Source of the DNA: Ostreococcus lucimarinus
Taxonomy: Eukaryota
Direction: 5' to 3' (one strand)
Length of the DNA: 64,000 bases
Assembly (NCBI GenBank): GCA_000092065.1
Contig: CP000586.1
This document shows, piece after piece, positions 61,352 through 64,000 of this stretch. Under the pieces are notes generated by a model. It had not been told where the DNA came from. It was given only the letters and a program-made list of their open reading frames with translations, and ran no database searches. Made by a program: the position numbers and the translations under genes. The stretch's first letter is position 1, and each line of letters starts with the position of its first letter.

Positions 61352-63769
61352 ATGGCTAGATTGGCGGCGATGTCGCGCGCGCGCGCATTCCCCGTCGCGT
61401 CGTTGGCGATGACGACGGTGGAGACGCGCGGCGGGCGCGGAGGACCGCGCGTCGCCTCGCGCGAGGGCGTCGGCGTTCATCGAGCGCGTCGGCGTCCTCG
61501 TGCGCTGTCGCTCACGGTAATCGTCAGCCTTTGCGTCGCGAGCGCGAGCGCGCTCGCGCTCGCGTTCGCGCGCGAAAGTGCGGGCATCAGTGACGTTAGT
61601 GATGTCGACGACGCCGTCATCAGAGCCGGTGACGTCGCTGCAGCCGACGAGGTGGCGTCTACGACGTCGCACGACGCGCCCGCGTGCATCGCCGAAGGCG
61701 TGGCTGCGCTGTCGACGTTAGAGGAATTTAGATACGTCTTACTGGCGCGAACTTCGGCGAACGAGGACATGTGTAGGTGCTTTCCCACGTGGAGTCGCGG
61801 CGTCGGTGCCGCGGAAGAGGCGCGAAGAGGAGAGTCTGACGTGAAAAAGACGAAGAAAGAGCCGCGCGCGCCCTTGTTGTCTTTGAAAGAATACAAAGAG
61901 AACATGGAAGAGAAGATGGCGCAGAAGCAGCGCGAGAAGGAGGCAAAACAGCGCGAGAAAGAAGAGAAGGAGCGCAAGCGCAAGAAGGAGGAAGATGAGG
62001 CATTGCGACGTTTAGTAGAGGTGAATGTGACGCACGGCGCCGTTTCCGAAAACGAAGACGCAGAGACAAAAGGCGAGACGTTGGAACCGAATAGCACGGA
62101 GACGACGACGGTGGACGAAGAACCCGCGCCAAGCGAGGTTTCGATCGAAGTAGAAGGCGGGCAGCAGCAGGCGGAGACGATGGACGGAGCGTCGACGGCG
62201 GAGACTGGCGAGCTCGCTCGCGACGCCGTGAGCGAAACGTCGCAGGCGGCGCCCGCGCCGGTCGAACCGCCCGTGATGGAAGAAGAAGATACCGACGGTG
62301 AAGCAACTTTCGCTGAGCTCGTGATCAAACCTGAACGCCTCACGGAAGCAGACGCGGAGATGTACAATTACGCCGCGAGCTTCAACGGAGCAAAGGTGGT
62401 GGCGAGCGATAAGGATTCAAAACACGCGAGCGCCGCTTTGAAGGAAGATAAAGATGTTTATTACATTTCTCCATGCGCTTCGGAAAAGTTTGTCACTGTT
62501 GAGCTGAGCGAGGAGGTGACGGTGACGAGCTTGGTTTTAGGAAACTTCGAGTTTCATTCGTCTCGCGTCAAAGATTTCGAAGTTTGGGGCACGGACGGGC
62601 ACCACGCTATTGAGGAAGGTTGGAAGAGACTGATGATTGGACGTGCGGATAACACGCAAAACTATCAAAAGTTTGCCGTGCCTTCGCCAGCGTGGGTGCG
62701 TTACGTACAAATTCGCATGACTGGTCATCACGATCAGCAACACTTTTGCACGTTGAGCCTGCTGCGCATCCACGGTAAAGACGCCAAGGAGACGTTGAAA
62801 GAAGAGATGGAGCGTTTGCAAGCGGAGGTGCAAGAGGTAGAGTCGTTATTGTCAGACGAGGACGAGGACGAGGACGAGGACGAAGACGTGGATGTTCGCG
62901 AAAGTTCTGCAGAAGTTGTGCTAGACGTTGAGGAGCAAAATCGTGAGGAAACAAACGCGAGCGCTGTGGTGGGCGAAGAAAACGAGCGCGCGTCGACTGG
63001 TGACGACAGAGATGTCTCTACTTCGAGCGAAACAGATCACTCGGCAAATGTCAACACATCGATCGCGGAGGGTGCACCGAGCGAAACGACGTCGAACTCT
63101 GATGAGGATGACAACGCCGCACAGGAGAGAGCGACGAAGATTGATGCGTCGACAACGTCTCGTCCAAATGCGACCGCCGCGGGCGCGACCGCCGTGAACG
63201 CGACGAACTCGAACGCTACGGGCGTCGCGACGGCTAAACCCAAGATGGCGACATCGACGAATGAACTCGCCAAGGGTGGCGGCGATGCGAACGTGTTTCG
63301 GTTGCTGGCGCAGAAGATCAAGGATTTAGAGCTCAACCAATCGCTTTTGTCGCGGTACGTGGAGTCGCTCAACGTGCGATACGGCGAAACGTTGGAAGAC
63401 TTCGGGAAAGAGATTGACGAGATTGAAGAATCAGTGTCGAATTCCACTGGCAAGCTCGACGAAGCCAGTCGCCAAGCGCGAGCGAGCTCGAAAGCGTGCG
63501 ATGACGCCGTCGCGCGCGTCAACGATAGCTCCGAAAAGCTCGTCGCCGCAGCCGTGTCTGAGTTGGACGCGTATCGCACGACTGTCGCGAAGCGGGACAC
63601 CGTTCTCGCACTCGCGCTCGCGCTCACAGCAGGCGCGCTCGTGGCGTCGCGCAGATCGTCTGGTGCGATCGAACGCGTCTTGAGCGCGCTCTCATCATTC
63701 GCTTTGCTCGTCATCGTCGTGGCGAACATCGTCCTCATAGCACAAAATTTCTTGTTAAAGTCGATGTAA
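61352..63769 (+). CDS. Mid-SUN (Sad1/UNC-84 domain) protein: N-terminal signal-anchor, central SUN domain, coiled coil, C-terminal TM. SUN3-5/SLP1/SUCO class.
   Basis: 'MYNYAASFNGAKVVASDKD...VYYISPCASEKFVTVELSEEVTVTSLVLGNFEFHSSRVKDFEVWG...WVRYVQIRMTGHHDQQHFCTLSLLRIHG' matches plant mid-SUN domains (NYA..., ...NPC..., FV.IEL, VLAN.EF.SS.VKDFE, WVRY..., YCTLS). C-terminal TM 'FALLVIVVANIVLIA'. First ATG is residue 20 of the track ORF (track start TTG). Confidence 0.75.
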   Translation: MARLAAMSRARAFPVASLAMTTVETRGGRGGPRVASREGVGVHRARRRPRALSLTVIVSLCVASASALALAFARESAGISDVSDVDDAVIRAGDVAAADEVASTTSHDAPACIAEGVAALSTLEEFRYVLLARTSANEDMCRCFPTWSRGVGAAEEARRGESDVKKTKKEPRAPLLSLKEYKENMEEKMAQKQREKEAKQREKEEKERKRKKEEDEALRRLVEVNVTHGAVSENEDAETKGETLEPNSTETTTVDEEPAPSEVSIEVEGGQQQAETMDGASTAETGELARDAVSETSQAAPAPVEPPVMEEEDTDGEATFAELVIKPERLTEADAEMYNYAASFNGAKVVASDKDSKHASAALKEDKDVYYISPCASEKFVTVELSEEVTVTSLVLGNFEFHSSRVKDFEVWGTDGHHAIEEGWKRLMIGRADNTQNYQKFAVPSPAWVRYVQIRMTGHHDQQHFCTLSLLRIHGKDAKETLKEEMERLQAEVQEVESLLSDEDEDEDEDEDVDVRESSAEVVLDVEEQNREETNASAVVGEENERASTGDDRDVSTSSETDHSANVNTSIAEGAPSETTSNSDEDDNAAQERATKIDASTTSRPNATAAGATAVNATNSNATGVATAKPKMATSTNELAKGGGDANVFRLLAQKIKDLELNQSLLSRYVESLNVRYGETLEDFGKEIDEIEESVSNSTGKLDEASRQARASSKACDDAVARVNDSSEKLVAAAVSELDAYRTTVAKRDTVLALALALTAGALVASRRSSGAIERVLSALSSFALLVIVVANIVLIAQNFLLKSM

Positions 63770-63832
63770 CACCCTTTTCCAACCGCAACCGCAAAGCCAT
63801 TCGCCCACGCCATTACCGTCGTCGTCCCTTTT

Positions 63833-64000
63833 TTTAGGGTTTAGGGTTTAGGGTTTAGGGTTTAGGGTTTAGGGTTTAGGGTTTAGGGTTTAGGGTTTAG
63901 GGTTTAGGGTTTAGGGTTTAGGGTTTAGGGTTTAGGGTTTAGGGTTTAGGGTTTAGGGTTTAGGGTTTAGGGTTTAGGGTTTAGGGTTTAGGGTTTAGGG
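63833..64000 (+). repeat. Telomere: (TTTAGGG)n, ~24 perfect units running to the window end (plant/green-algal type).
   Basis: Read directly: ...ccctttttTTTAGGGTTTAGGG... The G-rich strand runs 5'->3' toward the end, so this is the right-hand chromosome terminus. Confidence 0.95.

Follow-up and report, generated by a model that had tools for sequence, protein, structure and literature searches.

The right-hand end of a 64,000-nt stretch of Ostreococcus lucimarinus contig CP000586.1 (hereafter the window; one strand, read 5' to 3', with its right edge at position 64000) carries a gene for a mid-SUN protein, followed by 59 nt of unique sequence and then by telomere repeats. We propose that this arrangement arose by a terminal deletion at a true O. 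lucimarinus chromosome end, in strain CCE9901 or a near-identical strain, and that the broken end was very probably healed as a neotelomere, which segregates in the wild. The junction between gene flank and telomere, the existence of longer alleles of the same end and the multi-copy nature of the element that is missing from the window are all observed directly.

The SUN open reading frame (ORF) ends in AAG TCG ATG TAA; by direct reading the TAA occupies 63767–63769, in agreement with the stop at 63769 given in a preliminary description of the sequence. The flank that follows (63770–63828) ends in ...CCATTACCGTCGTCGTCCC and passes into TTTTTTTAGGG and then into unbroken TTTAGGG units up to 64000. 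That description had placed perfect repeats from about 63833, and Tandem Repeats Finder returned 24.0 copies at 63833–64000, with 100% matches and 0 indels. The distance from the stop codon to the first full unit is 63 nt (about 65 bp had been estimated), and with only the unique flank and four extra T residues in between, SUN is the last gene before the telomere, in line with the claim that it is the terminal gene of the chromosome. The 14-mer TTTAGGGTTTAGGG occurs 23 times, always within the tract and on the plus strand, and 0 times are expected from 100 shuffles. The G-rich strand runs 5' to 3' towards the window edge, which is the orientation needed for a right-hand terminus. No tandem or dispersed repeats were found between the SUN gene and the telomere, and an Rfam search of the entire window returned no match.

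TTTAGGG has been published as the telomere motif of both O. tauri and O. lucimarinus, and POT1 of the latter species (OlPOT1) binds GGGTTTAGGGT. The heptamer and its orientation, with the G strand towards the end, are those of the Arabidopsis-type (TTTAGGG)n telomeres of Ostreococcus, other green algae and plants. The repeat itself does not differ from that type over the first 168 bp of telomere, which is all that the window shows. In contigs from public metagenome assemblies, mainly those encoding the same SUN protein and designated here by L-numbers, TTTAGGG repeats also stand at other ends (L002, L003 and L045), with the mirror motif CCCTAAA at the left-hand ends of L002 and L003.

The junction recurs in nature. 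Four contigs from four samples (L001, L006, L007 and L008) carry ...GTCGTCCC joined to TTTTTTTAGGG, identical to the window and including the run of seven T (T7), and each of them stops within the repeat. Between these contigs and the window there are 2–14 substitutions over 4.3–12.5 kb, and L001 encodes a distinct SUN allele with a 3-amino-acid (aa) deletion. Because the samples are four, the backgrounds of single-nucleotide polymorphisms (SNPs) differ and the L001 allele is distinct, the junction is neither an artefact of the reference assembly nor the property of a single clone. No unique DNA was found distal to the tract in any of the five copies of the junction, that is, in the window and the four contigs.

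The same end also exists in longer forms. Other contigs of this species, at least 19 of them and 99.6–99.9% identical to the window, align to it exactly up to 63828 and then continue. Where the window has four T (T4) and telomere, these haplotypes read GCGTCGTCTCCCAGCG..., and all share the same 52 nt past 63828, GCGTCGTCTCCCAGCGCGCGTCGCC...CCTCCCTGAAACTAGGGTT (also given as GCGTCGTCTCCC...CTAGGGTT). At +111, counted from the SUN stop, they reach a telomere-like seed, ...CTGAAACTAGGGTT, beyond which they split into at least four different distal sequences. L017, which shares the window's A at +24, is the closest long relative. When JGI metagenomes were scanned with a 29-nt anchor taken from the 3' flank of SUN, only two loci came up, both of them long alleles and too few for allele frequencies.

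One of these forms, L022 (L022 positions 12368–19199; JGI 3300047157, a chromosome-scale contig of 826,362 bp), runs for 6.8 kb beyond SUN with sequence that is absent from the window, and its contig ends without telomere repeats. The reference genome would lack sequence found in other strains, here at least 6.8 kb that includes a Harbinger-type transposase and a gene for an XPG-like nuclease. In three further contigs (L015, L026 and L031) we noted a 13-nt minisatellite (AGAAACTAGGGTT) about +100 to +150 after the SUN stop, in 2–4 copies whose number varies by contig; variants of it are present in L013, L020 and L030, and it is located at the telomere-like seed where the haplotypes diverge.

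Past 63828, most same-species contigs enter a shared subtelomeric element of about 0.5–0.6 kb. An ORF called in the distal sequence of L023 has homologues, by homology search, at the ends of contigs with unrelated neighbouring genes. One of these contigs, L045 (with GDI, mTERF and Pterin_4a genes), shows an end in full: the unique DNA gives way to a degenerate internal seed (TTTTTAGGGTTTAGGGTTTTGGG) and then to the element, 535 nt of which can be aligned, at 96.6% identity, with what follows SUN in L023; terminal (TTTAGGG)n begins about 135 nt past the aligned part. L044 (NIF, FSH1 and PPR genes) ends in the same element, and 63 nt of it also occur at L002, the end from the sister lineage. These alignments show that the sequence apparently lost from the window end is a multi-copy subtelomeric element; no similarity to it was found within the 64-kb window.

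This fits what is described for the species. According to the available text of Chaux-Jukic et al. 2021 (PMC8287924), O. lucimarinus subtelomeres contain no tandem repeats, and shared elements lie at 36 of the 42 chromosome ends, adjoining the telomere: a Type-I element of up to 411 nt at 21 ends and a Type-II element of up to 844 nt at 15. We liken the element of the longer alleles to these by description. The window allele differs from that architecture in being without the entire element, and its telomere abuts 59 nt of single-copy gene flank instead of an element of up to 411 or 844 nt. The window end appears to belong to the minority of ends without an element, and the comparison of alleles indicates the route by which it would have been lost. 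Neither the wild polymorphism of this end nor the exact breakpoint is reported in the available text of PMC8287924.

The preliminary description had also stated that the chromosome has essentially no subtelomeric buffer. This is correct for the sequence of the window and does not stand as a fixed trait of a compact genome, since most same-species contigs continue past 63828. The comparison supports the view that the missing buffer is a derived, naturally segregating allele rather than a fixed property of the genome.

We propose the following sequence of events. The ancestral chromosome would have carried about 111 nt of unique flank after SUN, with the shared subtelomeric element beyond it and, in some strains, a further several kb. 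A double-strand break 59 nt after the SUN stop, between 63828 and 63829, would have led to the loss of all DNA distal to it, and the broken end would have been capped directly with telomere repeats, synthesis starting with an over-long run of T (T7) on an end (...GTCGTCCC) without a telomere-like seed. The healed chromosome would be viable, and it coexists with the longer alleles in wild populations. Two features of the alignments are those expected of a neotelomere: the intact alleles read through the breakpoint (19 contigs; a chromosome-scale contig does so for 6.8 kb), and homology stops abruptly at 63828, to be followed by T4 and (TTTAGGG)n without subtelomeric sequence.

Telomerase is the most likely agent, because the repeats at the junction are pure and T-rich starts are recurrent. 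A second, independent healing is seen in L004, about 165 nt after the stop (~+165), where ...GAGAAACTCGA is joined to TTTTTTAGGG(TTTAGGG)n; three other contigs (L016, L032 and L033) read through this point. The junctions of the healing type all start with long T-runs, namely T7 in the window (63829–63835), T6 in L004 (~5554–5559) and T5 at the internal seed of L045 (~4920–4945), whereas ordinary junctions (L002, L003 and the terminal junction of L045) have no over-long T-run. The three junctions, few as they are, hint at a stuttering of telomerase on the A-run of its template at initiation, and the over-long T-run may be a signature of telomerase starting on a non-telomeric end.

Several points weigh against a telomerase-healed deletion at a true chromosome end. 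The broken end lacks a G/T-rich seed, which is atypical of telomerase healing in yeast, and T4 might be the product of a different process. The right edge of the window lies within the repeat, so that its sequence alone leaves room for a continuation beyond 64000, and short-read assemblers break at long perfect repeats regardless; contigs that end in the tract are supportive, not decisive. The haplotype counts are biased by the route by which the contigs were retrieved. Finally, the poly(A) site of SUN and its expression beside the telomere are deduced from sequence, not from transcripts.

The first of these points is the starting point for the alternative that fares best, that the end was healed by recombination, through break-induced replication or template switching into another telomere tract, rather than by de novo telomerase action. 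An end such as ...GTCGTCCC offers telomerase nothing telomere-like to prime on, and T4 could be the scar of microhomology or of a template switch. Copying from another chromosome end would normally carry along the shared subtelomeric element, whereas here pure repeats follow directly, and the T6 and T5 runs at the two other healing-type junctions suggest a common enzymatic signature. We consider healing by recombination unlikely.

Next, the tract could be interstitial, with the chromosome continuing as unique sequence beyond 64000. The window edge does fall within the repeat, and internal telomere-like tracts are known at the same chromosome end in other strains, in L026, where a short tract about 470 nt after SUN is followed by Mito_carr, ROK and SRP68 genes, and in the L004/L016 allele, as well as, at another chromosome end, in L045, the latter two with 2–3 degenerate units. 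Internal tracts of this kind comprise 2–4 degenerate units, against at least 24 perfect units in the window, and interstitial sequence would be short and degenerate with unique DNA on both sides, which is not what the window tract looks like. None of the four independent junction contigs (0/4) runs on into unique DNA, and the tract is oriented as a right-hand terminus requires. Among records with the exact reference DDX1 protein, the longest (818,664 bp) is also about 7.7 kb shorter than the chromosome-scale long-allele contig L022 (826,362 bp), although the source of this difference was not traced. An interstitial tract is therefore very unlikely. The question of whether the window reaches a true terminus had been raised at the outset; four independent contigs that end in the repeat, none of which continues, leave the physical terminality of this end strongly supported, if not proven.

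The order of events could also be reversed, the short end being ancestral and the longer alleles reflecting later capture of subtelomeric sequence onto it. Subtelomeric elements do move between ends in O. lucimarinus, and several distal sequences are joined at the seed ...CTGAAACTAGGGTT (+111), so that capture onto old seeds has occurred here. The variable joining point is, however, +111 and not +59. All long alleles have the same 52 nt right after 63828, without a telomere remnant, whereas capture should have left an internal repeat at exactly this place; because no remnant was found at 63828 in any long allele, the long forms do not look like additions onto an older short end. The derived-looking SNP of the short allele is, moreover, common to only one long allele, L017. 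We regard an ancestral short end as extremely unlikely.

A misassembled join or a chimeric clone, which would have set telomere repeats artificially beside SUN, can be given almost no weight: telomeric repeats commonly give rise to chimeric joins and L001 has adapter sequence directly after its repeats, but the identical junction, T7 included, was recovered in four independent environmental assemblies from four samples, with different assemblers and slightly different SNP backgrounds, which settles the concern about a misassembled join voiced in the preliminary description. The tail of L001 (12504–12583; ENA ERZ27295481 k141_258368), after seven telomere repeats, consists of what we take to be Nextera transposase/Illumina adapter (CTGTCTCTTATACACATCTCCGAGCCCACGAGAC...ATCTCGTATGCCGTCTTCTGCTTG) and poly(A), and looks like untrimmed adapter assembled into the contig.

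A telomerase-healed terminal deletion raises the question of how a gene that ends 59 nt from a telomere forms the 3' end of its transcript. The poly(A) signal that dominates in O. lucimarinus is UGUAA, at 30–40% of sites (PMC6413133), and a TGTAA pentamer lies within −5 to +70 of the stop in 9 of the 34 likely genes of the window. At SUN the putative signal overlaps the stop codon. A SUN 3' untranslated region (UTR) of about 10–30 nt would fit within the remaining 59 nt. Where genes of the window converge, their stop codons are 43, 50, 60, 62, 114 and 131 bp apart, and because gaps of 43–62 bp are routine here, 59–63 nt downstream of a stop is ordinary for this genome. As a wider observation, spacing of 43–62 bp implies very short or overlapping 3' UTRs across the region. 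Past the SUN stop, homology extends for only 8–9 nt in L002 (the sister lineage) and in L025, which suggests that the gene needs little downstream sequence. The concern that 3'-end formation might be impaired by the telomere appears weak in this light. Since the likely UGUAA signal overlaps the stop codon and a short 3' UTR fits, the SUN gene probably stays functional, with continued normal expression.

We next consider the position of SUN in related chromosomes. In L002, from a sister lineage with 96% SUN identity, the block comprising the gene for a 222-aa protein and SUN is inverted between the sugar-transporter and aldo-keto-reductase genes and lies about 6.4–8.8 kb from the telomere. In L003, from a more distant species with 54% SUN identity, SUN is 6.5 kb in and the terminal gene encodes an EF-hand protein. 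The idea that a gene for a putative nuclear-envelope SUN protein is functionally tied to the adjoining telomere was considered and rejected, because the telomere-adjacent position is lineage-specific, and the terminal position of SUN looks incidental. The EF-hand gene provides a further case of tight spacing: in L003 (positions 1–260; JGI 3300033273, a 403,056-bp contig of an Ostreococcus-like species) the telomere repeats end at base 136, the first ATG is at about 255 by reading (the automatic gene call starts at 174), and promoter and 5' UTR would be confined to about 118 nt beside the telomere.

The end is also rearranged within the species. In L029 (JGI 3300046167, a 817,267-bp contig) the terminal ~17 kb appears inverted relative to the window: 39513–46891 is joined directly to 63818, from which the sequence runs down to 55120, where the contig ends, so that only 63818–55120 of the inverted part is seen. 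The breakpoints would lie at window 46891/46892 and at 63818 (+49). In this strain SUN would adjoin the zf-RING gene, and the side of the BCCT transporter would face the telomere. L025 resembled an inverted duplication around the SUN block and was set aside, as one half is 96.9% identical to the window and the other 99.6%, a disparity that suggests a chimeric metagenome contig. L026 (ENA ERZ27313092 k141_279724) has a short, degenerate internal telomere tract 470–560 nt after the SUN stop; the genes beyond it, which include V-ATPase_C in addition to those named above, are not in the window and represent either a captured segment of another chromosome or a chimeric contig.

Structural breakpoints thus cluster shortly after the SUN stop, at +8/9 (L025 and L002), +49 (L029), +59 (the window), +111 (where at least four haplotypes diverge) and ~+165 (L004). 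Telomere-abutting genes are common in the genus, and the structure of this end is unstable. With at least four rearrangement or healing breakpoints within 165 nt of one gene and several end structures coexisting, a bolder and, in our estimate, doubtful reading is that the end is a natural hotspot of repeated cycles of break, healing and capture in wild O. lucimarinus, with T-run starts on seedless ends. If this were so, the T-run could mark how telomerase of the green lineage initiates de novo synthesis, and metagenomes could be mined for telomere healing, and for possible position effects on SUN, in natural eukaryotic populations.

Chromosome healing after terminal deletion is described in the accessible parts of reports on yeast, on subtelomeric deletions in Plasmodium falciparum and on human 22q13 and 18q (PMC8012806, PMC5550746, PMC3136441, PMC4427916). 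As far as those parts go, the window end resembles these cases in that homology to the intact allele stops abruptly, telomere repeats follow directly, distal material is lost and inheritance is stable. It differs from them in being a natural allele that segregates in ocean picoplankton and was detected in metagenomes, in having no TG-rich seed and in the extra T residues at the junction. The type of telomere, the genome and subtelomere truncation in O. lucimarinus are already in the literature, and close spacing of gene and telomere is ordinary. What is new is modest: the precise neotelomere junction, and the finding that it occurs alongside longer alleles in natural populations. A literature search turned up nothing on telomere healing in Ostreococcus. 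In all likelihood the end illustrates known biology neatly and does not represent a new kind of system. It would mean that no special mechanism is needed for an apparently functional gene of an ultra-compact alga to lie 59 nt from a telomere, and that the end in the reference strain is one of several coexisting structural alleles. It may also offer a natural test case for telomerase healing of seedless breaks, and for the effect of telomere proximity on the expression of a neighbouring gene.

The SUN protein itself is of the mid-SUN type. The mechanical ORF starts at 61295 (824 aa), with further in-frame ATG codons at 61352 and at the more likely start, 61370. Its match to Sad1_UNC in Pfam (E = 2.4e-23; 83 bits, cut-off 22) covers the middle of the protein and not its C terminus, which bears out the earlier label of mid-SUN. 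Orthologues of 54–99% identity all carry PF07738, and the exact 799-aa product is encoded on 12 metagenome contigs. A hydropathy scan of the 799-aa form returned hydrophobic segments at 44–68 and 765–799; a third, shorter stretch (VLALALALTAGALVA) fell below threshold, the mid-SUN type having one N-terminal and two C-terminal transmembrane helices. Partial transmembrane helices have been noted for the O. lucimarinus mid-SUN protein (PMC7982736). A sequence search of the PDB with the SUN protein gave no match. The protein shares with other mid-SUN proteins (plant SUN3/4/5 and yeast Slp1; PMC7982736) a central Sad1_UNC domain, N- and C-terminal hydrophobic segments and a long acidic or coiled region between them. 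What sets it apart is the lineage-specific position of its gene beside a telomere; its nuclear-envelope localization and its function are putative. An antisense ORF at 63037–63813 on the minus strand, with its start 20 nt from the telomere, is probably spurious, since the conserved coding region of SUN lies opposite its whole length.

Table 1. Features of the chromosome end and of the contigs compared with it. Positions are those of the window.
Feature	Position	Strand	Details
Mid-SUN gene, last before the telomere	61370–63769	+	799 aa from ATG 61370 (most likely start)
SUN (Sad1/UNC) domain, mid-protein	62414–62779	+	Pfam Sad1_UNC, residues 374–495 of the 824-aa ORF
TGTAA pentamer, last codon ATG plus stop TAA	63765–63769	+	Putative poly(A) signal of the SUN gene
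Unique 3' flank, 59 nt	63770–63828	+	Retained part of the presumed ancestral SUN downstream sequence
Four extra T	63829–63832	+	T-run of 7 (63829–63835) against 3; fits neither the ancestral flank nor the regular repeat unit
Telomere, 24 perfect TTTAGGG units	63833–64000	+	Tandem Repeats Finder; tract cut by the window edge
Tight convergent gene pairs (43–62 bp)	9491–9535; 21826–21887; 58221–58272; 60456–60519
Junction contigs			L001 from ERZ27295481; L006 and L007 from ENA project PRJEB4352 (two assemblies); L008 from a KOPF15 sample
Marker k-mers			Short allele GTCGTCCCTTTTTTTAGGG; long alleles GTCGTCCCGCGTCGTCTCC; second healing CTCGATTTTTTAGGG
Distal genes of L022			ORFs of 114, 103 and 422 aa; 592-aa DDE_Tnp_4 (Harbinger-type) transposase; 660-aa XPG_N/XPG_I nuclease

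Other genes of the window agree with its assignment to O. lucimarinus CCE9901: the DDX1 product (23935–26220) is an exact match to XP_001418333.1, and the 222-aa product encoded on the minus strand at 60522–61187 is an exact match to XP_001418578.1. A single ORF of 4657 aa on the minus strand at 27965–41938 encodes a complete dynein heavy chain (DHC_N1/N2, AAA_6 to AAA_9, MT stalk and Dynein_C) and lies in a stretch of low GC content, 0.49–0.51 against 0.55–0.69 elsewhere in the window.

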